Shown: positions 8,550 to 19,537 of the stretch, piece by piece | Position numbering within the stretch: position 1 is the first letter of the stretch | Layout of the letters: every line of letters begins with the position of its first letter | DNA from: an uncultured virus (IMG/VR IMGVR_UViG_3300005826_000001) | Taxonomy: Duplodnaviria; Heunggongvirae; Uroviricota; Caudoviricetes | IMG/VR virus record: IMGVR_UViG_3300005826_000001 | Location: 58,232-78,231 of that record | Length of the DNA: 20,000 nt | Strand: one strand, 5' to 3' | Position numbers and translations under genes: made by a program | The notes under the pieces: model-generated | Database searches by the model: none | What the model saw: only the letters and a program-made list of their open reading frames with translations | Told to the model about the DNA's origin: nothing

Positions 8550-9659
8550 ATGCCAGCGCTAGCCCGAGGGCAGGAAAACACGCCATCCATAGTCAATTGG
8601 TTTTTGACTATAAACGGCGTTCTCACCGACGCCTATGCGGTGGAGTACCGCATTTTTGACATCACAGGGGGGCTTCCAGGCACCCAGATCTTTCCGGCCA
8701 CCCCGGGCGACTATGAGACGGTGACCACAGGGGCAGGCAATTTTTCCACAGGGTCATACTACGCATATGACAACGGCAACGCCCAAGGGTGGACCCCGGG
8801 GATCGCGGAGCCGATTGGAACGCACCGCATCGAGTGGCGCTGGAAGATTTCTGTTGGTTCAGCGTATCAGGCGGGTCAAGAAGATTTTGAGGTGTTGGTG
8901 CAATCGGCGGGAAGCTCCGCCGACACCTACATCAACGTGCAGGACATCCGGGACCTCGGAGTGCCTGATCCGCCCGATGATGCGGCGGTGCTCGCCGCCA
9001 TCGAGACTTGGCAGGCGTTCTTGGAGAGGGCGTGCCGGCAATGGTTTGTGCCCAAGTCCTTGACGCTCCAGCTTGATGGGACAGATTCCGACACCCTCCA
9101 CTTCGGGGTGCCGATCATCAGCATCGACTACATCCAGATCAACGACCAAGGGGTGAATCTGGCTGCTGACGAGTACAAGGTGTACAGCGCGGTGAAGTAT
9201 CCGGACGACAGGCACAACCCGAGGATCAAGCTGGTTAACGCGCAAGACCTCGACATCTACACAGCGCCGGTGTCGCATCCCAATCTGCGCCGGAAGTTTC
9301 GCAAGGGGCGGCAGAACCAGATCGTCAAGGGCGTGTTCGGATACGTTGAGGAGGATGGCGGAGTGCCGAAGCTGATCAAGAGGGCGCTCACAAAGCTGGT
9401 CATCGAGAAGCTGTCCAAGCCCTTGTATGTAGACGACAGCAATCCTGCCGCTCTGCCATCGCCGCCGGCCATCCTGGGGGACGTTATGGAGGAGTGGACG
9501 GATGGCCATAAAATCAAATACGGCACAGCAGGGACAGAGCTCAAACCCCGATCGGCCGGGCTCGCTGGCATCACGGATGACCAGGAGATCACCGACATCA
9601 TCCGCCTGTATCGCGCGCCCATCGGCGCGGCGACTCCGGCGCACCCGAGTTTCACCTGA
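8550..9659 (+). CDS. Head-tail adaptor/connector protein with an extra N-terminal Ig-like domain
   Basis: AGGAGG RBS. From about residue 125: TYINVQDIR...DDAAVLAAIETWQAFLERACRQWF...LDG.....L...PIISID...V.G.FGY.....PKLIKRALTKL, a typical SPP1 gp15/HK97 gp6-like adaptor pattern. It is the first gene of the neck cluster. Confidence 0.8.
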   Translation: MPALARGQENTPSIVNWFLTINGVLTDAYAVEYRIFDITGGLPGTQIFPATPGDYETVTTGAGNFSTGSYYAYDNGNAQGWTPGIAEPIGTHRIEWRWKISVGSAYQAGQEDFEVLVQSAGSSADTYINVQDIRDLGVPDPPDDAAVLAAIETWQAFLERACRQWFVPKSLTLQLDGTDSDTLHFGVPIISIDYIQINDQGVNLAADEYKVYSAVKYPDDRHNPRIKLVNAQDLDIYTAPVSHPNLRRKFRKGRQNQIVKGVFGYVEEDGGVPKLIKRALTKLVIEKLSKPLYVDDSNPAALPSPPAILGDVMEEWTDGHKIKYGTAGTELKPRSAGLAGITDDQEITDIIRLYRAPIGAATPAHPSFT

Positions 9660-10063
9660 TGGTACAACCCAACCTCATCCATCCCGTGCCCATTGATGTT
9701 GAACAATGGGTTGAAGCGGAAACCATCGTTGATGACGACTTCCGGGAGCCGGTCCAGCAGGCGGCTCGGGCGGTGGTCACCACCGTCGTTGGCCAGCCCC
9801 GATGGGGGATTGAGAAGGGGCTTCAGCCCACGATCATCGGCGCTGAAGCAGAGTCAGACGGTTATGTGTTGTTCAGATACAAGGATCTGGAAGCAGCCGG
9901 CATCGAGCTGAAGACCAACGATCGGTTCATCAAGATTGGCAAGATTGTCACCGACGTTTACATCACCAAGCTCCGTCCGGAGGGGCACTACACAGATCAG
10001 GGCGGTGCCACCTTGGTGAAGGCGTTTTTTGCTGACAGGGAGCCGTCCAGAGGGGTGGCGTGA
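9659..10063 (+). CDS. Head-closure/stopper protein (SPP1 gp16-like)
   Basis: 134 aa, directly after the adaptor. Contains the DDDFREP motif and the L...GIELK.NDR....G...YI..L.P.GHY pattern. Confidence 0.7.
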   Translation: MVQPNLIHPVPIDVEQWVEAETIVDDDFREPVQQAARAVVTTVVGQPRWGIEKGLQPTIIGAEAESDGYVLFRYKDLEAAGIELKTNDRFIKIGKIVTDVYITKLRPEGHYTDQGGATLVKAFFADREPSRGVA

Positions 10064-10689
10064 CCCGAATCAAGTTTGACAAGCGGGGTTGGGTGAAGCT
10101 GGAGGCAGCTCTGGACCCCGCCAAGATGGACGCGACGATGAAGCGCCATCTCCGTCGGGCATCCGGTCTCAACGGCAAGTTGGTTCAAGCCGCTGTGCGG
10201 TCAGAGATCAGCGGCGGCAAGTTTGCTCCCAACCGCCCACTCACGGTGGCGCTGAAGGGCGGCAGGAATGAGCCCTTGATCGGCAACTCAGACCTCTTCA
10301 ACGCAATAACGTCCAAAGTTATTGGCGATACACAGGTGTTTGTCGGTGTGTTGCGTACCGACGATGTGTACAACATCGCAGTCGCAATTCACGACGGGCG
10401 GGAGATCGGCGTCACATCGGCAATGCGCGGCTTGTTCTTTGTGCTCTGGCAAGCTAGCGTTGACCCTGCCCAGGTAGCCAAGTTGAAGGGCAGGGCCAAG
10501 GACTTGTGGGAAACGATGCCAGGAGGATGGAAGCCGCTCAAGCCCTCCACCCGCGCCATCATCATCCCTTCGCGGCCATTCATCAAGCAGGCATTCAAAG
10601 CAGTGGGGCTCAAAAAGAAAGTCCAAGATAATTGGCGGATGGCACTTCAAGCAGCGGTGCGTGAACAAAGCAGGAGCGGTGGCGCATGA
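10060..10689 (+). CDS. Neck/tail-completion (virion morphogenesis) protein, HK97 gp10/Mu gpG-like
   Basis: Basic protein with FAPNRPLTVALKG...PLI...DL.NAI, A.A.HDG and IPSRPFI motifs, placed after the stopper. Confidence 0.8.
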   Translation: MTRIKFDKRGWVKLEAALDPAKMDATMKRHLRRASGLNGKLVQAAVRSEISGGKFAPNRPLTVALKGGRNEPLIGNSDLFNAITSKVIGDTQVFVGVLRTDDVYNIAVAIHDGREIGVTSAMRGLFFVLWQASVDPAQVAKLKGRAKDLWETMPGGWKPLKPSTRAIIIPSRPFIKQAFKAVGLKKKVQDNWRMALQAAVREQSRSGGA

Positions 10690-11948
10690 GAGTCAAAAGG
10701 CTGATCAAACGCTTCCAATTTGAAGAGCGCAATCGCAGCCGCATCACCCTCGGGACCGATGTCAGGCTCAATCCTGAGACGCATCGACTGCAGCTCAAAG
10801 AGACATCGGCGGGGACCTATCCAACCACAGCAGACCTGTACGCCAAGACCTGGGTGACGACGCCGGAGCGAGTCCGGCAGTGGCTCAGTTTTGAGGCGGA
10901 GATTGTCCACCCCAAGGATGATCTCGGGCAACCGCTCACCAGCGCCGGATATCGGCTCTCAGACGGCACGGATGAATATTGGTGGGACGGAGGGGCGTGG
11001 ACGGTAAACACCACCGACTGGAACACCGAGCAGGAAGTTGCCGCCAACATCTCCGACTTCCCAGCCACCGCGAAGCAGCTTCAAGTCATCATCAACCTGG
11101 TCACGACCGATGAGACGGTGACGCCCGAGTTGGCGGCGGTCAAGGTGCTGTACTCGGCAGATATCGAGCACCAAGAGGACTATGTGTACAGGTCGCTGGT
11201 CCGATTGCTCCGGAGCGAGGTGCGGCCGATCTCGGATTATCCAATCAAGTTGACCGCCGTCACCGACGTGGTGGACATCGATGACTATCCGTTGGAGACG
11301 CCCTACAACGTGGTTGGGGTGGACTCTGTGTTTGATCACACGGCAGATCCGAACCACTTCACAGATCTCTTGGCGTCGTATGACGCACCGACCAAGGTCA
11401 TCACCTTGACCAGCGCGGTGGCCGCCGGTAACATCCTGTGGGTCAAGTTCATCTGGGAGCCCGAGGTTGCCGTGACCACCGCCGCAGAATACACAGAGGT
11501 GGCCAAGGTGCCAGCCATCGAGATCAGCGATATCAATCTGGTGGACTCCGCCGATACAGGCACAGACGATTGGGTGATCGACAAGGGCGCCGGGACGGCA
11601 GTCAAAGTCTTTGCGCCGCTCCAAGCGGACATCGAGTTCACGTTACGCGGGCTGACTGATAGCGCGCGGGACCAACACAGACTCGCTGACGAGCTGAAGC
11701 GCTTTTTCCGCAACAACCCGATCATTCGGTCTGTCGGGATGGATGAAGAGTTTAGGCTTTGGTTGCTGACCGAGTATGATATGGCAACCGTGGCCAATCG
11801 GGATGAGATTCAGTCCGGCAGGCTCCGGGCTCGCATCGTCAAGGCGTTGTTTTATGAGCGCGACGCCGTGGACGTATACGCTGTACAGAGGTTCAACCTG
11901 ACAGGCGACATGAACGCTGTGATCAACCAAGTGAACGTTGGTGATTGA
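10686..11948 (+). CDS. Tail terminator/sheath-capping protein with extra domains (420 aa)
   Basis: Immediately upstream of the sheath. C-terminal PAIEISD...PLQADIEFTLRGLTDSARDQHRLADELKRFF resembles the terminator fold. Confidence 0.6.
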   Translation: MRVKRLIKRFQFEERNRSRITLGTDVRLNPETHRLQLKETSAGTYPTTADLYAKTWVTTPERVRQWLSFEAEIVHPKDDLGQPLTSAGYRLSDGTDEYWWDGGAWTVNTTDWNTEQEVAANISDFPATAKQLQVIINLVTTDETVTPELAAVKVLYSADIEHQEDYVYRSLVRLLRSEVRPISDYPIKLTAVTDVVDIDDYPLETPYNVVGVDSVFDHTADPNHFTDLLASYDAPTKVITLTSAVAAGNILWVKFIWEPEVAVTTAAEYTEVAKVPAIEISDINLVDSADTGTDDWVIDKGAGTAVKVFAPLQADIEFTLRGLTDSARDQHRLADELKRFFRNNPIIRSVGMDEEFRLWLLTEYDMATVANRDEIQSGRLRARIVKALFYERDAVDVYAVQRFNLTGDMNAVINQVNVGD

Positions 11949-11964
11949 TTAGGAGGCACGACCC

Positions 11965-14253
11965 ATGGCTCAAAGGCGATTTGGCCCCACACGTGGTGCG
12001 GGCGTGGCAATCATTGAGTTGGAAGGTGAAAAGGGGATCACCCCCGGAGCACTTGGCTTTGCAGGCTATGCGGGCGTGCTTGAAAAGGGACCCGTTGGTG
12101 AGTTGATCATAGCCACCAACCAGAAGCAGTTTGAGAAGAAATGCGGCGGGATCATCTCCGCGTCCTTGCTCCCGGATGCCGCGTTTGATTACTATTCACT
12201 GGCCAACGGCGCCGGAGGGCTCCTGCTTGTCCGTGTCACCGACGGCAATGAAGCGCAGGCGGAGATGCCGCTGTATGCGCGCAACGCTTCGGTGCTCACC
12301 CAGATGGGGACGCTGAAGGCCAAGAACGGCGGGAGATGGGGCGGCAAGGAGAAACGCTACAGTGGCGAGATGGCCGTTGTCGCCACGGACCTCACCAACA
12401 CAACCCTCGACACCGGCGTGGCCACCTTCAAGACGGATGAGTGGGTGGGTGGTTACATCGAGCTACCCGATGTGCCCAATGTGCGTTATCCGATCGTGGG
12501 CAACACCGCCGCCGGGGTGATCACGGTCGCCGCCGACCAGACCATGAAGGACACATACGATGGTCTGTCGGGCGCTGATGACAGGTACTACCTGGTGTTG
12601 GAAAACGAGGACAAGGCTCTCAGCGTCATCATCGGCGATGGTGAGGAGGACCCCAGCGGCGAGTTCAGCCTGTCTGTGTACGTGGACGGGGACTTTGTCA
12701 AGAAGTATCCCAACCTGAACACGGATCCGACCGACGCCAACTACTGGGTGAAGGTCATCAACGATGACACCGGGAATGACGAGATCACGGCTGTGGATCT
12801 TTGGACGGGTGCTCACGTGCCAGGCGTGCGACCGGCCAACGTTTATGGCTTGATCGCTGCTGGATTGTCTGATACGGTGCTGCCCGCCGTCATCCACGAC
12901 TTCGCGGTCACGTTGTCACCAACGGGCGCCAATCCGACGGTCGCGCTGGACGCCACCGACGATGACATGGTTGCCCAGCAGCTGACCCTTACGATGGCTG
13001 ATGCCACGACGTTCAACGTGGTGTCCGACAAATTCGGAGCGCTGGGCGTCGGCACGGTCGGAGTCTCGTTTGTCGCCGACATCAAGTGGGTGCCGGAGTT
13101 CACGGTGTCCAACGGCGCCACCGTCTTGGCCACGGGCGACACGATGCGGCTGAACTACAAGCCGCTGAAGCCCGACGCCCTGATCGGGGGCTATGTGTAT
13201 CCAGACAAGGTGAACGCCAAGTCCACCAAGTTCAGGATTGTCGACAACGACCACGACAGCATCACAGCCGCCGACGGCTCCACGATGCTCACCGACGGAG
13301 CGCCAGGCGATCAATTCCTGGTGGAAGCTCCGTTGGAGATGGAGGGTGGCAGAGACGGCTATGCAGACCTGGTGGATGCCGACTACAACCAGCAGGCTTG
13401 GGACGTTGGCAACAGCCCGTTCAACCGCACCTTCGGCAAGAACTATGGGCTGATCAAGTTTGCGACGCCGGGCATCAACGCCACGGCAGTCCAAAAGGCC
13501 GGCGTTGCCTATGCCGACGCCAAAAACCATCAGTACAGGTATGAATTCCCCGCCAACATCACCACGGAGTCAGCAGCGATTGACTACGTGAATGACACCC
13601 TCGGGCGTTCAGACTATGCCGTGGCGGCATTCCCGTCCTACGGTGACGTGGCTGACCCGAGCGGAGGGCCGCTGACCAAGCAGGTGGTCAACACCGGGAT
13701 GATCCATGGCCGTGAGGCTCGGATCGCGGCTGACTATGACGGCTATCACAAGGCGGGAGCGGGTTTGGACGCGACGCTTCCGGCGTTGCTCGATGTGACG
13801 ACCGGGGACGCGCTGCTCAATGAAGAGCTGCTCAACCCCGTCGGCATTGCTGTCGTCAAGAAGCTGAAGGGCAACTACGTGGTCTGGGGCGACCGGACCC
13901 TGAACACAGACCCCAACTGGAAATGGAAGCATCAGCGAGAGCAGATGTCCTACTATGAACACGTGCTCCAGGAGTCCTTTGACTGGGTTGTGTTCATGAT
14001 CAACGATCCGACCACGGAAAAGTTGGCGTTGGCATCGCTCCAGAGCTACTTTCTGCCGGAGTTCACCAAGCGGGCTCTGCGCGGGGAAACCTTCCAGGAC
14101 GCCGCGATCATCAAGCTCGATGAAGAGTTGAACACCAATGCGACCAGAGCGGCTGGCGACATGATCGCTGAGATCAAGCTCCGGCTGGCCGACACGGTGG
14201 AGCGCTTCATCATCCGCATTGGCAAACAGGGCATCTTTGAGTCTGTTGGCTGA
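11965..14253 (+). CDS. Contractile tail sheath protein (762 aa)
   Basis: AGGAGG RBS. N-terminal GV.IIE...GYAG..EKGP, and C-terminal LNP.GI......G..VVWGDRTL...W......RE...F.W.VF..ND...RG...ERFII, the conserved sheath C-terminal pattern. Confidence 0.95.
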   Translation: MAQRRFGPTRGAGVAIIELEGEKGITPGALGFAGYAGVLEKGPVGELIIATNQKQFEKKCGGIISASLLPDAAFDYYSLANGAGGLLLVRVTDGNEAQAEMPLYARNASVLTQMGTLKAKNGGRWGGKEKRYSGEMAVVATDLTNTTLDTGVATFKTDEWVGGYIELPDVPNVRYPIVGNTAAGVITVAADQTMKDTYDGLSGADDRYYLVLENEDKALSVIIGDGEEDPSGEFSLSVYVDGDFVKKYPNLNTDPTDANYWVKVINDDTGNDEITAVDLWTGAHVPGVRPANVYGLIAAGLSDTVLPAVIHDFAVTLSPTGANPTVALDATDDDMVAQQLTLTMADATTFNVVSDKFGALGVGTVGVSFVADIKWVPEFTVSNGATVLATGDTMRLNYKPLKPDALIGGYVYPDKVNAKSTKFRIVDNDHDSITAADGSTMLTDGAPGDQFLVEAPLEMEGGRDGYADLVDADYNQQAWDVGNSPFNRTFGKNYGLIKFATPGINATAVQKAGVAYADAKNHQYRYEFPANITTESAAIDYVNDTLGRSDYAVAAFPSYGDVADPSGGPLTKQVVNTGMIHGREARIAADYDGYHKAGAGLDATLPALLDVTTGDALLNEELLNPVGIAVVKKLKGNYVVWGDRTLNTDPNWKWKHQREQMSYYEHVLQESFDWVVFMINDPTTEKLALASLQSYFLPEFTKRALRGETFQDAAIIKLDEELNTNATRAAGDMIAEIKLRLADTVERFIIRIGKQGIFESVG

Positions 14254-14296
14254 AGCAGCCCCGATACAGCCCACCAAGGGGGCATAGGAGTTTGAC

Positions 14297-14554
14297 ATGA
14301 CAACCAATCTGAAGAAGCTGTTGGGCGAAGCTGGGGCAGGCCTGGACTCGTCACATGGCTCCACAACCCTCTATGAGCTGTTGGAAGCGATGGTCACCCA
14401 GATGACCGACGTGGCCGACAAGTTCAACAACCACACGCACGCCGCCGACGGGGCGGAGGCAGGGGCATACAACACGTCCAGGCCTCAGTCCGACGCCGAG
14501 GACAAGACTCAGGGCACACCATCCGCCATCACGGCGTTGGTGGCTGTGGAGTAG
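14297..14554 (+). CDS. Small protein (85 aa) with a helix and an FNNHTH (HxH) motif
   Basis: AGGAG RBS. Fills the gap between the sheath and tube genes. Confidence 0.75.
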   Translation: MTTNLKKLLGEAGAGLDSSHGSTTLYELLEAMVTQMTDVADKFNNHTHAADGAEAGAYNTSRPQSDAEDKTQGTPSAITALVAVE

Positions 14555-14608
14555 CCACCGAGGGCAAGGCCGCAGGCGCGGACACTTCAGCTCAGGAGGA
14601 TTCTATAC

Positions 14609-15049
14609 ATGAAAGGCGCTATCCAAGCTGACCACATACCGGTCAACAAGTACGTGTTGTTGGTCTTGGGGCTTCCAACGCTGACGCCCACAGAAATTGG
14701 CGGGTTGGAGGATGAACTCCAAACCACAGAACTGCCAGACCGCACTCGGGCATCCGGCGGGAACCGGGGGCCATCCGAGTTCACGATCATGCTCCCCATG
14801 CATCACACGGTGGAGCAGGCGGCAATGGAGGTTTGGTTCAGGGAGTCTCAGGACCCCGTCAGCCCAACCTACAAGAAGGTCGCAACGCTGATTCACCAGT
14901 CCATCAGCGGCAACGCTTCTCGCACGTACTCCATCGTCAACGCATTCCCGACAAAGCGGGTGCTCCCTGACCTGGAGATGGAAAACGAGGGCGAGCTGGC
15001 GGCAGTGGAGTGGACCATCAGCGTCGATGACATCGTGCCAACTGCTTGA
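14609..15049 (+). CDS. Tail tube protein (T4 gp19-like family)
   Basis: AGGAGG RBS, 146 aa, after the sheath. Pattern N.Y.L.V.G....EIGGL...W......K...L......Y...NAFPTK...PDL.......VEWTI.VD.I. Confidence 0.9.
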   Translation: MKGAIQADHIPVNKYVLLVLGLPTLTPTEIGGLEDELQTTELPDRTRASGGNRGPSEFTIMLPMHHTVEQAAMEVWFRESQDPVSPTYKKVATLIHQSISGNASRTYSIVNAFPTKRVLPDLEMENEGELAAVEWTISVDDIVPTA

Positions 15050-15052
15050 TTC

Positions 15053-15240
15053 GCTGTCTGGTTCGGACCTGCACCAGACAGCATAGGTCGCAGCGCGCCT
15101 GGACAGACTGTGACGGAGCCAGGATGCACGAGCGATCCTGAGTCGCAGCGCTCCCGGTTCCGTTCAGCCTTCGCGCCGGGAGCGCTGCGACCCTTACATA
15201 CAGCGGCGGGCCTAACAAGGCGATTGCTAATTGGAGGTTG
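15053..15240 (+). ncRNA. Candidate structured cis-regulatory RNA in the tube-chaperone intergenic region
   Basis: Perfect 10-bp stem 15053-62/15073-82, hairpin 15120-15140, perfect 16-bp stem 15142-57/15176-91, and an alternative 11-bp pairing 15086-96/15182-92. This is the largest non-coding gap in the window. Function is unknown. Confidence 0.55.
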
Positions 15241-15242
15241 CC

Positions 15243-16067
15243 GTGACCACCGAGAAAACACCCCCACAGACCTCGATTGTCCAGCTCAAAGAATTGGGTG
15301 CGCACCTGCCTTTGGGCATCCTTGACAGCGGCAGCTATGTCAGGGACATAGCGCTGCGTCCTTGGCGTATGGCTGAAGAGCGAGAATTGGGGCGCATCCG
15401 GGACGCGAACAAGGACGCTAACATTGCGACGTTTGTCAGCTTGGTGCTTTCCGTCATGTGTACAAGGTTAGGTCCACATGACTTCGGAAACATGAAGCCC
15501 GAGCAACGTCGCGTGATTATCGGCCAGATGTTCATGGGTGACGTTCTGTACGTGTATGTCTGGCTGCGCGTCCAGACCATGGGGAATATGCTGGACCTCA
15601 ACCTGACTTGCGCAAGTTGCGGCCACAAATTCCCATTCAAGGCAGATCTGGAGACTGTCGAGGTGGAAACCGCCGAGACAGAAGATGCAGCATCGTGGAC
15701 CTACAAGCTCCGGGACCCGTTCAAGATCCGGGACCGAATGGCCGACGCCATCCGGATGGGTCCAACGCGCTGGAATGCTCTGGAGATGATGGACGGGCGC
15801 GGCGGGATGAACACAGGCGCGGCCAAGGCGGGAATCATCCAGGGGTGCTTCCGAGGGCTCGCAGACGATGACAAGCCCATGGTGATCGGGGACTCGGAGC
15901 TGGATGACATGTCCAAGTGGGACCTCGAACACCTGACCACGGAGATCGATGACTACAGCATCGGGCCCAACATGGCGGTGGAAGGGAAGTGCCCACGTTG
16001 CAACCGTGATTTCCGCACGTCGATGGACTGGGGATATGACAGTTTTTTCGGCGTTTCCTCCCGCTAA
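15243..16067 (+). CDS. Tail assembly chaperone (lambda gpG analogue, T4 gp26-like), two tandem domains each ending in CxxC
   Basis: GTG at 15243 after GGAGG (15233-37). Lies between tube and tape measure. Motifs D..Y....LR..T.G....L..TCASC and GP...VEGKCPRC...SFF. Confidence 0.8.
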   Translation: MTTEKTPPQTSIVQLKELGAHLPLGILDSGSYVRDIALRPWRMAEERELGRIRDANKDANIATFVSLVLSVMCTRLGPHDFGNMKPEQRRVIIGQMFMGDVLYVYVWLRVQTMGNMLDLNLTCASCGHKFPFKADLETVEVETAETEDAASWTYKLRDPFKIRDRMADAIRMGPTRWNALEMMDGRGGMNTGAAKAGIIQGCFRGLADDDKPMVIGDSELDDMSKWDLEHLTTEIDDYSIGPNMAVEGKCPRCNRDFRTSMDWGYDSFFGVSSR

Positions 16068-16090
16068 GATCCACGGATGATTTGCGGGAG
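16043..16090 (+). promoter_or_regulatory. Programmed -1 ribosomal frameshift signal (T TTT TTC plus 3' hairpin)
   Basis: Heptamer 16043-16049 is in the correct X XXY YYZ phase (AGT TTT TTC). After an 8-nt spacer comes the stem CTCCCGC 16058-64 / GCGGGAG 16084-90. The -1 frame is open to TAA 16250-52. Confidence 0.8.
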
Positions 16091-16252
16091 CAGGTGTTTG
16101 CGCTAACCTATTGTATGGAGGGGATGACCTACGGGGATGTGATGGACATGCCGAGCGTGGACCGTGAATGGTACCTGAATCGGCTCCACACGCAGATGAA
16201 GCGGGAAGCTGACGCCATGAAGCGGACCCGAGTGAGAAAACCAAGAGGATAA
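16049..16252 (+). CDS. -1 frame extension of the chaperone (lambda gpT analogue, short gp51-like helical domain), giving a fusion of about 336 aa
   Basis: Not in the ORF track. Reads RRFLPLRSTDDLREQVFALTYCMEGMTYGDVMDMPSVDREWYLNRLHTQMKREADAMKRTRVRKPRG* and ends 3 nt before the tape-measure ATG. Confidence 0.8.
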   Translation, partial: RRFLPLRSTDDLREQVFALTYCMEGMTYGDVMDMPSVDREWYLNRLHTQMKREADAMKRTRVRKPRG

Positions 16253-16255
16253 CAG

Positions 16256-19200
16256 ATGGCGCTTGAACGCATCGGTCTTGGAGCCACGCTCACAGCAGAC
16301 AGCACCCAGATGGTCAACGCCATGGGGAAGGCCCGAGATGAATTCGGGCGCTTCGTGACTGCTGGCAATCGCGTCCCACCCACTCTAAACAACATCGGGA
16401 TGGCATCGCAACGAGCGATGCAACAGATGTCGGCTGGTGTCAGCAAGATCAGCAAGGGCATCGGCCAATTCAACTCCGGGCTCCGCTCCGCCACCTTCGC
16501 CGCTTTGCCTCTGACCGTCGCCGTCGGAGCCGGCGTGGCGAAGGCAGCCGCGTTTGAGAAGCAGATGTCTGCCGTGGGCGCCATCACCCGCGCCAACGAG
16601 CAGGACATGACCATGCTGACCAAGAAGGCCAAGCAGATGGGCATCACATCTGTCTTCTCGGCCACTCAGTCGGCACAGGCTATGGAATTCATGGCGCGGG
16701 CGGGAGCGTCGGCGACGCAGATCACCGCTGGTCTCAGCGGCGTGATGAACGCGGCGGCGGCAGATTCCATCGACTTGGCGACCTCAGCAGACATCGTGTC
16801 TCAAGTCGTGAAGGGGATGGGCAAATCGTTTGACGAAGCCAACAACATTGCCGACATCCTTGCACTTACATCAGCGCGTTCTAACACCAACATCATCAAT
16901 CTCGGTGAGTCCTTCAAGTATGGTGCCGCCCAAGCCCGAGCGATGGGTGTGCCGATTGAAGAGACTGCGGCCATCTTTGGGAAGCTGGCCGACGCTGGTC
17001 TGCGCGGGAGTCTCGGTGGGACCGCATTGACCAACATGCTCATCAAGATGGCCAAGCCATCCAAAGAAGGCAAGAAGATTCTGGATGAGTTTGGTGTCAA
17101 GCTGACCACCGCCGATGGCAAGATGCGCAAGATCAGCGCCGTTGTCGATGACTTCTCCAAGGAGCTGAACAAGATCCCTGACGCCGCCCAACGAGCGGCC
17201 AAGGCCACAGAAGTCTTTGGCGTCCGTGGTCAGCGAGGTTTCTTTGCTCTGGCAGCCGCCGGAGCCGAAGCGACCAACAAACTTGAGCGCGAGCTGCTAG
17301 CATCCAGCTTCGGGATTGGCGCCGCTGCTGAAGCCGCCGAGAAGCGGCTGGACAACTTCCTTGGCGCTTTGACTCTGTTCTCGTCATCAGTGGAGTCAGT
17401 CAGCATCGGGTTGTTCAGCCCTCTGCTCAAGGCATTCACGCCAGTGGTCCAGGAGATCACCGACGGGCTCAACTCCATCTTGTTCTCGCTGGAGGGGTTG
17501 GACGACATCCGAAACAAGGAGCGACGCCTCAACGCGGAGTCCGCACAGGTCATCGGTGAGTTGACAGCCCGACGGCTAGAAGATGCAGGTGCAAGTAAAC
17601 AGCAGACGTTGGCCACGCAGAGTGCCATGATGGTACTATCTCGGAGTCAGATCTCAACCGAGAATTTGAGCCGGGCACAAGTGGAGGCACGCAAACGCGG
17701 CGTGCTGGCGGCGTTTGAACAAGCGCAACGGGAGAAAGAAGCGGAAGCTCTGGCCAACGCGGCACGCGCCGCCGGGGTCAAGAGCGTTGAAGATTTGAGT
17801 GAAAACCGCAAAAAGGTTGTGCTTTCAGGTCTCAAGAAACAGTTTGAGGTTGAAAAAGAGACCATTGGCAAGCAGATTGACCTGGCACTATCCGGGGCCA
17901 AGGGCGCGGCGGCGGCTCGGGAAGCGCTCAAGGAGCGGACCCTTCAGCTGGCGCTGGAGACTTCCGCCGGTCTTAGCGCTGAACAGCGGAAGCAGTTGGC
18001 CACGACACTCGCCGCCGACGCTTCAATCATGGTCGGGCTGGAGCAGCGTGAAGACTCAATCCGAGCCCAAATCCACACCATCGAGCGGCTGCAAGAGATT
18101 GAAGAGAAGCACGGCAAGGGCGCTGTGTCCATTGCCCAAGGCATTCAGGACGCTATCGACACCCTCAAGAATGGATGGGACAGATTGGTCCAATCCGTCC
18201 GGAATTTCGGCGACGCACTTCGCCAGCAACTGGGCGATGAAGGGCTCCGCCGGCTGACCAAGATCATCACCGTCATCACTCTGATCACAGCGGCGGTTGT
18301 ACCGGTGTTGATCGCTTTAGCCACCGTCGGTTTCTTCATCAGCGGGCTGACCACCGCGTTTGCCGCCTTGTGGACCATCGCCAGCGGAGTGTTCACCTTC
18401 ATGTCAGGCGCCGCCGGGATGCTCATGGCGGCTCTGTGGCCTATCACGCTCGTGCTCGGAGCCGTCGGGCTCGCCTTTGCTCTCATCCGCCGGGAAAACG
18501 AGACTGTGATGCAGACGGTCACCCGCGTCTGGGAAGGCATCAAGGCCAAGGTGATCGAGGTTTGGGTTGGGGTGATTCAGCCCTTCATCGAGGGCTTCCG
18601 GCTGGCCTGGCAGGTGCTCACCGCCGACATCAAGGAGGCATGGGACAACACCATCGGTTCTGTGATACAGGTGTTCACCGAAGTCATCGCCGACATCAAA
18701 TCCCACATCCAGGAGATCTCAGCCGCATGGGGGTTTGGCACCGACGCCATGACCGTTGATTGGGTGGAGATGGGCAAGACGGTGGCCAATTTCGTGGCGG
18801 CGATGGTCATTGCCGTCATTGAGACGATCGGATTCTTGGTCAAGACGGCCACAAAGGTAATGGGCGTTTTGTTCAAAGTCTTGACCATGCCCTTCCAAGC
18901 GTTTGACAACTTCTTGGGGCTCACCTTTGATGGGATCATCGACCTCATGGAAGGCAACTTCTTGACCGGGCTCGCCAAGATCGGGGTGGCCATCTTTGAT
19001 GTGCTGACCACGCCAATCCGAATGGCGCTCAAGGGCGTCCTGGAGCTGGCCAAGCTCATCCCCGGAGTCGAGAGCAAGATCCCACAGGGGTTGCAGAAGT
19101 TTGCGGATGAAGGGCTCCAAGGGTTCACATTCCCGAAGCCCGAGCAGCAAAAGAAGACCGCAGTGGAGGTGGCACAGAAGGGCGCCGAAGCGGCGGCGAC

Positions 19201-19537
19201 CACCGCGCCCACGCAGCCTCAAGTGGCGGCGGAGCAGGACCGGAAGTCCCAACTGGCGACGCTCAAGGAGCAGCTGAAGGGCATCACAGACCTCAAGGTT
19301 CAAGAGAAGCAGCGCCAACAAGAGGCACCCAAGGTTCAGGTCCAGGCGGATCTCACAGACAAGCGCACCCTCAACATCAACAACAAGATGTGCGTGGACG
19401 GAGAAAGTCTCAATGTCGCGTCGGCGCGGCACAAGCAGGAGATTCAGGACAGAGCCGGGTTCCGGGCGACGCCGTGGCAACGGAGGGTGATGTTGGAACA
19501 GGGCGCGGCGCCGGTGACCGCGTCAGCGACGGGGTGA
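16256..19537 (+). CDS. Tail tape measure protein, TP901 family (1093 aa)
   Basis: AAAFEKQMSAVGAIT...SVFSATQSAQAMEFMARAG...DILA.....SNT....LGESFKY...GLRGS.GGTAL is the TP901-type core. It is followed by a charged helical region, a hydrophobic segment and Trp-periodic repeats. Confidence 0.95.
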   Translation: MALERIGLGATLTADSTQMVNAMGKARDEFGRFVTAGNRVPPTLNNIGMASQRAMQQMSAGVSKISKGIGQFNSGLRSATFAALPLTVAVGAGVAKAAAFEKQMSAVGAITRANEQDMTMLTKKAKQMGITSVFSATQSAQAMEFMARAGASATQITAGLSGVMNAAAADSIDLATSADIVSQVVKGMGKSFDEANNIADILALTSARSNTNIINLGESFKYGAAQARAMGVPIEETAAIFGKLADAGLRGSLGGTALTNMLIKMAKPSKEGKKILDEFGVKLTTADGKMRKISAVVDDFSKELNKIPDAAQRAAKATEVFGVRGQRGFFALAAAGAEATNKLERELLASSFGIGAAAEAAEKRLDNFLGALTLFSSSVESVSIGLFSPLLKAFTPVVQEITDGLNSILFSLEGLDDIRNKERRLNAESAQVIGELTARRLEDAGASKQQTLATQSAMMVLSRSQISTENLSRAQVEARKRGVLAAFEQAQREKEAEALANAARAAGVKSVEDLSENRKKVVLSGLKKQFEVEKETIGKQIDLALSGAKGAAAAREALKERTLQLALETSAGLSAEQRKQLATTLAADASIMVGLEQREDSIRAQIHTIERLQEIEEKHGKGAVSIAQGIQDAIDTLKNGWDRLVQSVRNFGDALRQQLGDEGLRRLTKIITVITLITAAVVPVLIALATVGFFISGLTTAFAALWTIASGVFTFMSGAAGMLMAALWPITLVLGAVGLAFALIRRENETVMQTVTRVWEGIKAKVIEVWVGVIQPFIEGFRLAWQVLTADIKEAWDNTIGSVIQVFTEVIADIKSHIQEISAAWGFGTDAMTVDWVEMGKTVANFVAAMVIAVIETIGFLVKTATKVMGVLFKVLTMPFQAFDNFLGLTFDGIIDLMEGNFLTGLAKIGVAIFDVLTTPIRMALKGVLELAKLIPGVESKIPQGLQKFADEGLQGFTFPKPEQQKKTAVEVAQKGAEAAATTAPTQPQVAAEQDRKSQLATLKEQLKGITDLKVQEKQRQQEAPKVQVQADLTDKRTLNINNKMCVDGESLNVASARHKQEIQDRAGFRATPWQRRVMLEQGAAPVTASATG

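Follow-up and report, generated by a model that had tools for sequence, protein, structure and literature searches.

A conserved leader hairpin and a lineage-specific duplicated palindrome in the tube-chaperone spacer of an uncultivated myophage

In an uncultivated myophage represented by the IMG/VR record IMGVR_UViG_3300005826_000001 (Caudoviricetes), the tail tube gene and the tail assembly chaperone gene are separated by a long, structured spacer. We analyzed the last 20 kb of this 78,231-bp viral record (G000; 58.6% G+C), a stretch of 20,000 nucleotides (nt) that is referred to here as the window and whose coordinates are used unless the record is named. The region in question, 15050-15245, runs from the nucleotide after the tube stop codon to the end of the chaperone start codon. 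We consider it probable that this region consists of two layers: a conserved hairpin in the leader of the chaperone mRNA (15201-15245), which would throttle chaperone translation, and a young, lineage-specific duplicated palindrome upstream of it (15050-15195), which would act at most as a passive barrier. An initial annotation of the window had read both parts together as a two-state cis-regulatory RNA. The leader is of an ordinary kind, a hairpin that sequesters a ribosome-binding site (RBS), with no new mechanism, and it is in no curated family.

To place the spacer among its relatives, the tube protein was used as a search query, which returned 15 viral-contig loci and 23 metagenome loci, with tube relatives recovered at 41-100% identity. 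Of these 38 loci, 35 were examined; L165 was left out since its tube match extends past the end of the locus, as were L167 and L168 at only 28% identity. Dereplication gave 22 distinct related spacers with 41-80% tube identity in addition to that of the window, while the corresponding search with the chaperone protein gave only a twin contig. The related spacers are mostly short: 19 of the 22 measure 46-76 nt, one measures 104 nt (L014) and two reach 143 nt (L164) and 146 nt (L016), compared with 193 nt in the window.

What all 23 spacers have in common is their final 45-58 nt, corresponding to 15201-15245 in the window. This leader begins with an A/C-rich run, followed by the box CCTAACAAG, a short variable hairpin, the sequence (G/A)ATTGGAGG and, 5-9 nt further on, a GTG or ATG start codon. 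In the window the hairpin occupies 15203..15245 on the + strand, with the Shine-Dalgarno sequence (SD) GGAGG at 15233-37 and the start codon GTG at 15243-45, and four nested helices can be distinguished. The outermost, P1, pairs 15203-09 with 15238-44 (consensus CACGGTT with AACCGTG) and reaches into the start codon. P2 joins CCT (15211-13) to AGG (15235-37), the consensus being (G)CCT with AGG(T) of the SD, and P3 joins CAA (15216-18) to TTG (15231-33). The apical helix P4 (15219-21 with 15226-28) differs in sequence almost everywhere, for example CATCCAT/ATGGATG in L017, CGCGC/GCGCG in L159 and GACCGT/ACGGTC in L012. In the predicted structure the box CCTAACAAG is an anti-Shine-Dalgarno element that pairs with ATTGGAGG through P2 and P3. 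The initial annotation had taken these 3' 45 nt as a plain SD; the SD is there, and the region around it turns out to be the conserved structure.

The same nested architecture appeared when each of the 23 sequences was folded alone. In the individual minimum free energy (MFE) folds, at least three of the five SD bases are paired in every sequence (23/23), while all three start-codon bases are paired in 10 and one or more of them in 15. The median free energy of these folds is -17.6 kcal/mol, with a range of about -16 to -23 kcal/mol and -7.4 kcal/mol for the AT-rich L011. The window leader folded alone (15201-45) adopts the consensus fold at -16.3 kcal/mol with four of five SD bases and two of three start-codon bases paired, and the hairpin stays intact within the MFE fold of the whole spacer.

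Sequence changes in the leader preserve the pairing. In an unedited MAFFT alignment of the 23 sequences (A1), 82.0% of 434 cells can pair, compared with 32-42% when the 3' partners are slid by one to three columns. Both partners have changed in 12 of the 20 pairs, over 57 cells, and the covariation score reaches 0.325 where the slid controls give 0.047-0.074; neither the paired fraction nor the covariation score was reached by any of 500 shuffles. Examples in P1 include CACGGCT/AGCCGTG in L007 and CGTGGGT/ACCCATG in L152. At two of the 20 positions G-U is the commonest pair, which fits an RNA of the + strand. RNAalifold independently predicts the core of the structure (two base pairs of P2, P3 and four base pairs of P4), and a model-fitted alignment gives the same figures, although such an alignment leans towards the model. 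Two features of an RBS-sequestering leader are thus present, with the SD, and often the start codon, paired in the favored fold and the structure kept by compensatory change.

A covariance model of the leader (R1) produced one strong match per genome (30-59 bits) in five of five genomes, always at the tube/chaperone junction, which argues for a gene-specific leader rather than a dispersed operator. A wider role was considered and rejected. For the motif CCTAACAAG...TTGGAGG as a repeated promoter or operator, regular-expression counts are at chance level in the 78-kb record, where two look-alikes occur at G000 8085 and 8671, both at the ends of open reading frames (ORFs). The only extra matches of the covariance model are weak, at 13.6 and 11.8 bits, and a regulon signal was dropped. 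The former lies at G000:C1:8650-8750 (E 0.08 to the leader model) and could be chance; it is located where an ORF ends and contains CTATCAAG and, about 50 nt on, GATTGGAGGG with a GTG start. Separately, a partial leader core (CTCACAAG - hairpin - AGTTGGAG) was seen just 5' of the tube gene in L162 (1459-1490), L165 (1459-1490) and L013 (2968-2992), scoring 14.7-20.1 bits with R1. Searches of open-access full text, aimed at leaders of tail chaperone genes and at stem-loops between cistrons, listed no report of a comparable leader ahead of a tail assembly chaperone gene.

If the leader acts as its structure suggests, this nested stem-loop in the chaperone mRNA would hold the SD, and often the start codon, in base-paired form, and its stability would keep initiation at the chaperone and tape measure genes far below that at the sheath and tube genes. 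In this structure the outer helix P1 pairs its 5' side, which is flanked by A/C-rich sequence, with the spacer and start codon, and the variable P4 closes the loop. Such a leader offers a simple explanation of how a single operon could yield sheath and tube in much larger amounts than chaperone and tape measure. Two established routes by which ribosomes use such an RBS would suit this anatomy. The first is translational coupling, in which, in about half of the relatives, a ribosome ending tube translation would reach the hairpin and could open it: the distance from the tube stop to P1 (alignment column 20) is at most 13 nt in 11 of the 23 sequences, whereas it is 59-93 nt in L014, L016 and L164 and 151 nt in the window. 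In addition, the single-stranded stretch 5' of P1 may be a ribosome standby site, as the 16 nt preceding P1 are A/C-rich and G-poor (mean A+C 0.67 versus 0.51 for the loci, 23 sequences). In the window, the A/C-rich linker CCTTACATACA (15192..15202, + strand), whose ACATAC is common to the closest relatives, connects the upstream layer to the leader hairpin.

The upstream layer differs from the leader in its distribution. All of the sequence features listed in the initial annotation were found by direct reading at the coordinates it gave. On the + strand, hairpin (i) at 15053..15082 begins 3 nt past the tube stop and has a perfect 10-bp stem (GCTGTCTGGT at 15053-62, ACCAGACAGC at 15073-82) with a 10-nt loop. 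It belongs to the same lineage-specific insert as two further units of about 55 nt. U1 (15087..15141, 5' arm GTCGCAGCGCGCCTGG) is a degenerate copy of the hairpin unit and includes hairpin (ii) at 15120-40, formed by CAGGAT (15120-25) and ATCCTG (15135-40). U2 (15142..15191) is a perfect 16-bp stem with an 18-nt loop and arms at 15142-57 and 15176-91. A second copy of GTCGCAGCGC lies at 15087-96, and TAGGTC (15084-89) can pair with GACCTG (15066-71) over 6 bp, one of them G-U. These hairpins of 15053-15192 are absent from all 22 distinct related tube-chaperone spacers, so that the array shows no conservation in homologous loci, an outcome that the initial annotation had itself named as refuting. 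Apart from the window, only an identical twin (L004, L146) carries the insert. The complete twin genome of 105,469 bp has it once, three other complete related genomes lack it, and a fourth has only two 18-nt chance matches. Its edges are not settable to the base, as the relatives differ throughout the 5' part of the spacer.

The internal make-up of the insert points to its origin. Global alignment of U1 (15087-15141) with U2 (15142-15196) scores 11, compared with -6.4 +/- 3.4 for shuffled sequences, none of which reached this value in 2000 trials; the direct repeat D12 shows the same relationship. The two 55-nt halves are thus copies of a single palindromic hairpin unit that gave rise to the region by duplication, and U1 has decayed since: its 3' arm now makes the small hairpin 15120-40. 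Hairpin (i) was tried as a third copy (U0) and rejected, the alignment not being significant (p = 0.1-0.3). With palindromic units, it follows automatically that U1 can pair through its 5' arm with the 3' arm of U2, and the two halves zip together since the center of U1 is similar in sequence to the U2 loop in reverse complement. The competing GTCGCAGCGC pairing, in which the initial annotation saw a switch, follows from this duplication and is no evidence of selection for switching.

The region is exceptionally well folded, as had been proposed. The sequence 15047-15260 folds at -103.4 kcal/mol compared with -77.8 kcal/mol for shuffled sequences (standard deviation 4.4, z = -5.8), with none of 200 shuffles as good, and no other perfect hairpin in the 78,231-bp record is as long as the 16-bp stem, whereas the maximum in ten first-order simulated sequences is 9-11 bp. 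However, the opposite strand folds nearly as well (z = -4.4), so the fold excess reflects palindromic DNA and leaves the strand undefined. The MFE state skips the local 16-bp stem; instead, the upstream GGTCGCAGCGC (15086-96) pairs with 15182-92 and the halves form a 107-nt, long imperfect hairpin of U1 with U2 (15086..15192, + strand). Forcing the local stem gives -99.1 kcal/mol, at a cost of 4.3 kcal/mol, and two states of the insert are therefore thermodynamically possible in this calculation. The competing pairings described in the initial annotation thus reappear as two computed, near-isoenergetic states.

Parts of the stretch are also present in seven RNA-library runs labelled estuary metagenome, four of which were compared with the window. 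Run X1 has a single contig across 10000-18280 and run X4 a contig covering 14896-15130, in which the 5' half of the insert is seen for a second time. A contig of run X2 (window 15223-15489) begins 3' of the insert and differs at four positions (15254-56 and 15277), which points to a close variant strain in another sample.

Several observations weigh against the two-layer reading. P1 is poorly paired in distant relatives, with 6-12 of the 23 sequences unpaired at five of its seven columns in the fixed alignment, and the P1 of the window itself forms only with a bulge or with three G-U pairs. P2 and P3 are nearly invariant and carry no covariation information of their own, and the covariation controls, shuffles included, leave phylogenetic relatedness in. 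For the insert, states only about 4 kcal/mol apart make bistability physically possible. The structured spacer of L016 and L164 hints that long stem-loops at this junction can be selected, in which case the insert may be more than a passive by-product. The RNA-library contigs carry no RNA ends, strand or level and may stem from DNA carry-over, and the gaps in X2-X4 are not evidence.

We regard the switch proposed in the initial annotation as very improbable. In that model, 15050-15245 is a two-state cis-regulatory RNA: depending on a ligand, protein or RNase, either the local 16-bp stem or the pairing with the upstream copy forms, and the loop of the stem, once exposed, masks or unmasks the SD. 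The alternative pairings are real and some 4 kcal/mol apart and the fold is strong, yet the hairpins are missing from every distinct homologous spacer, the alternative pairing is a necessary result of duplicating a palindrome, and the opposite strand folds almost as well. Control of expression at this junction is plausible, as the annotation held in proposing a step down from sheath and tube to the genes behind them, but nothing points to a sensor of a ligand, protein or RNase; with a single sequence in hand, there is also no conserved unpaired pocket that could be compared. The loop CAGCCTTC (15165-72) can indeed pair with GGAGGTTG (15233-40), and the complementarity extends to a 9-bp run including G-U with a duplex energy of -13.1 kcal/mol. 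A shuffled loop matches this run in 4.5% of 20,000 trials, but a match somewhere in the shuffled 146-nt insert is found in 36% of 2,000 trials, and forcing the loop-SD pairing in a nested fold is about 19 kcal/mol worse than the MFE. The complementarity of loop and SD is accordingly at chance level, and such a pairing would have to compete with the conserved, covarying local anti-SD helix that is already on the SD. Rfam offered no family for the switch either: cmscan of 14500-15800 on both strands with E up to 10 found none at its gathering score, and the seven matches returned (14-18 bits) were to eukaryotic snoRNA, miRNA and lncRNA models, all far under their gathering scores, so the statement that the element is of no known family stands. 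A bolder version keeps the bistability and joins it to the leader, the 45-58-nt leader being an undescribed cis-regulatory RNA class of ~105-kb uncultivated myophages that ties chaperone and tape measure to tube translation, by ribosome unfolding or CA-rich standby, and the palindrome insert being a truly bistable element that rewires this coupling. We think this improbable; if true, the insert would be a snapshot of a riboregulator born by palindrome duplication.

The remaining alternatives concern the insert only. It is doubtful, though it deserves more weight than the others, that the insert is an actively selected processing or termination signal, either a terminator or attenuator lacking a U-tract or a site of the RNase III type, setting the mRNA ratio of sheath/tube to chaperone/tape measure. 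Its position is exactly where a stoichiometry step-down is needed, very stable stems stand right after the tube stop, and protective 3' structures have a precedent (Dar and Sorek 2018, PMC5927463). L016 (3438-3584) and L164 (499-642), a second high-GC lineage with 48-49% tube identity, have independently gained their own structured 143-146-nt spacer; this is GC-rich sequence unrelated to the window hairpins, and its 10-bp hairpin reads CGTCTCCC/GGGGGACG in one member and CGACCCCC/GGGGGTCG in the other, a compensatory change. Against such a signal, the 19 relatives with 46-76-nt spacers do without stems of this kind. The perfect 10-bp and 16-bp stems have the G+C-rich character of an intrinsic terminator, but no U-run follows either of them (the sequences behind them are ATAGGTCG and CCCTTACATACA) and the 18-nt loop of the longer one is not short. 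A consensus scan of the whole window for sigma-70 promoters and terminators likewise placed no site within 15050-15245, in agreement with the earlier view that this is not a classical terminator. RNase III prefers about 20 bp or more, and the perfect helix is just 16 bp. We find it unlikely that the insert is a mobile or host-derived palindromic element, akin to repetitive extragenic palindromic (REP) sequences, REPINs or miniature inverted-repeat transposable elements (MITEs), that inserted into the one non-coding part of the tail operon able to tolerate it. The imperfect palindromic unit in an inverted doublet, the resemblance of the U1 center to the reverse complement of the U2 loop, the 107-nt hairpin and the presence/absence polymorphism among relatives all suit such an element, but the many dispersed copies typical of one were not found. 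The 78-kb record and the complete twin each contain one copy, and blastn of the insert against plasmid and phage records, as well as of 14000-16500 against phage records, gave no matches. A pattern requiring both 10-nt arms exactly, 15-45 nt apart, occurs at six loci in viral contigs (the twin plus five unrelated sequences) and at 120 or more loci, at least, in representative prokaryote genomes, where among the matches listed none is similar beyond the required arms. The REP- or MITE-like scatter considered in the initial annotation is thus not seen, and a host-derived repeat is unlikely, in a scan that demands exact arms and with a host that is not identified. Least credible of all is a role of the palindromes as DNA, for instance as a cruciform, in protein binding, or as a signal for replication or packaging: the minus-strand fold is almost as strong and the stems are perfect Watson-Crick palindromes, but the element sits within a late operon of co-directional genes, it is not shared by the relatives, and related genomes classed with direct terminal repeats are without it.

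We therefore prefer the reading of a conserved leader hairpin joined by a young palindrome insert. Any effect of the insert would be passive, as a stem-loop barrier giving 3' protection to the sheath/tube mRNA or a partial stop to RNA polymerase, and there may be none. By placing 151 nt of stable structure between the tube stop and P1, the insert would abolish any such coupling in the window, and it would cut the standby stretch to about 11 nt. Apparent two-state RNA switches can thus arise trivially from palindrome duplication, which corrects an attractive but unsupported 'riboswitch-like' reading of the spacer. The conserved motif, an anti-SD box with a covarying apical helix that recurs across an environmental myophage family, could be useful in annotation, where it marks the tube/chaperone junction, and as a model of translational coupling.

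The spacer lies in a late morphogenesis operon on the + strand of the window, in the order sheath, small ORF, tube, chaperone and tape measure. The sheath gene (11965-14253, PHROG 23) is followed by the small ORF (14297-14554) and the tube gene (14609..15049, 146 amino acids, stop TGA at 15047-49), whose product has a weak match to Pfam PF06841 (T4 gp19; E 5.8e-4, under the curated cut-off). No other gap between the chained + strand ORFs of the window is as large as the 193-nt spacer; it is not the sole one in what the initial annotation had called an otherwise overlapping operon, gaps of 43 nt and 54 nt also being present before the small ORF and the tube gene. A small conserved hairpin, (A)AGGCCGC...GCGGA, precedes the tube gene in the window (about 14566-14582), L005 and L010.

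Downstream of the spacer, a 274-amino-acid gene (15243..16067) precedes the tape measure gene (16256..19537, 1093 amino acids; Pfam PF10145, E 4.8e-44; PHROG 1533). The 274-amino-acid protein matches PF12322 'T4_baseplate' (E 3e-13) and PHROG 150 'baseplate hub' and no chaperone family. The gene contains a slippery T_TTT_TTC at 16043-49, from which the -1 frame continues for 67 codons to a stop at 16250-52, ending 3 nt ahead of the tape measure ATG, and 10 of the 11 relatives checked likewise have a T_TTT_TTC followed by a -1 extension of 54-80 codons up to the start of the tape measure gene (L012 was not evaluated). On account of this conserved frameshift site, the gene behaves as a tail assembly chaperone of the G/GT type: it has the expected position behind the tube gene and ahead of the tape measure gene, and its X_XXY_YYZ site opens a -1 extension up to the latter.

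Some features elsewhere in the record were noted in passing. Positions 1-131 of the window contain a tandem repeat with a 12-nt period (GAGCCCGAGCCG..., seven overlapping copies of 48 nt) that codes for a Glu/Pro/Asp-rich stretch. At G000:C1:11177-11260, a T-run precedes a perfect 15-bp hairpin (11207-11244) within a mechanically called 1623-amino-acid ORF (8742-13613), which may be a mis-joined ORF or contain an embedded element. A common style of terminator lacking a U-tract was considered for the record and rejected, since this hairpin at G000 11207 is inside a long ORF and no class could be defined. Three further hairpins, at G000:C1:29229-29249, 34472-34515 and 35397-35425, have the arms TCGGAGGGTG / CACCCTCCGA or parts of them and may form a small repeated hairpin family in the early region.

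Among known systems, the gene behind the spacer is comparable to the Lambda G/GT chaperone frameshift in its slippery heptamer and its -1 extension to the tape measure, and differs from it in that its family matches, PF12322 and PHROG 150, are not to a chaperone family. The insert invites comparison with phage T7, where intercistronic RNase III sites are irregular long hairpins between late genes that can leave a stabilizing 3' hairpin. It likewise places long predicted hairpins between two late genes on a polycistronic phage message; it is lineage-specific and has no sequence or structural homology to the T7 sites, which it resembles in form. With REPINs it shares two palindromic unit copies that fold into one long hairpin, but there is one insert copy per genome and its units are about 55 nt, whereas typical REPs are shorter. 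A further comparison is with protective intergenic stem-loops and REP elements: Dar and Sorek (2018, PMC5927463) describe intergenic 3' stem-loops that shield upstream cistrons from 3'-5' exonucleases, such as that of malE-malF. The window also has very stable stems directly after a highly expressed cistron and lacks a U-tract, although its insert is single-copy, is not conserved among relatives and has no repeated family in the collections searched. The nearest counterpart of the leader is the class of RBS-sequestering leaders, exemplified by the MS2 coat and replicase cistrons and de Smit and van Duin's model, and discussed by Sterk et al. (2018, PMC5934652), where CA-rich single-stranded tails are reported to strongly boost translation from a sequestered RBS and to act as ribosome standby sites. 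The phage leader differs in belonging to the late operon of a DNA myophage, and Rfam has no entry for its box CCTAACAAG / ATTGGAGG together with a variable apical helix. It resembles them in enclosing the SD and start codon within a stable local hairpin, in the A/C-rich single-stranded stretch directly 5' of that hairpin and, in many relatives, in an upstream cistron that ends within ribosome reach of the 5' arm.

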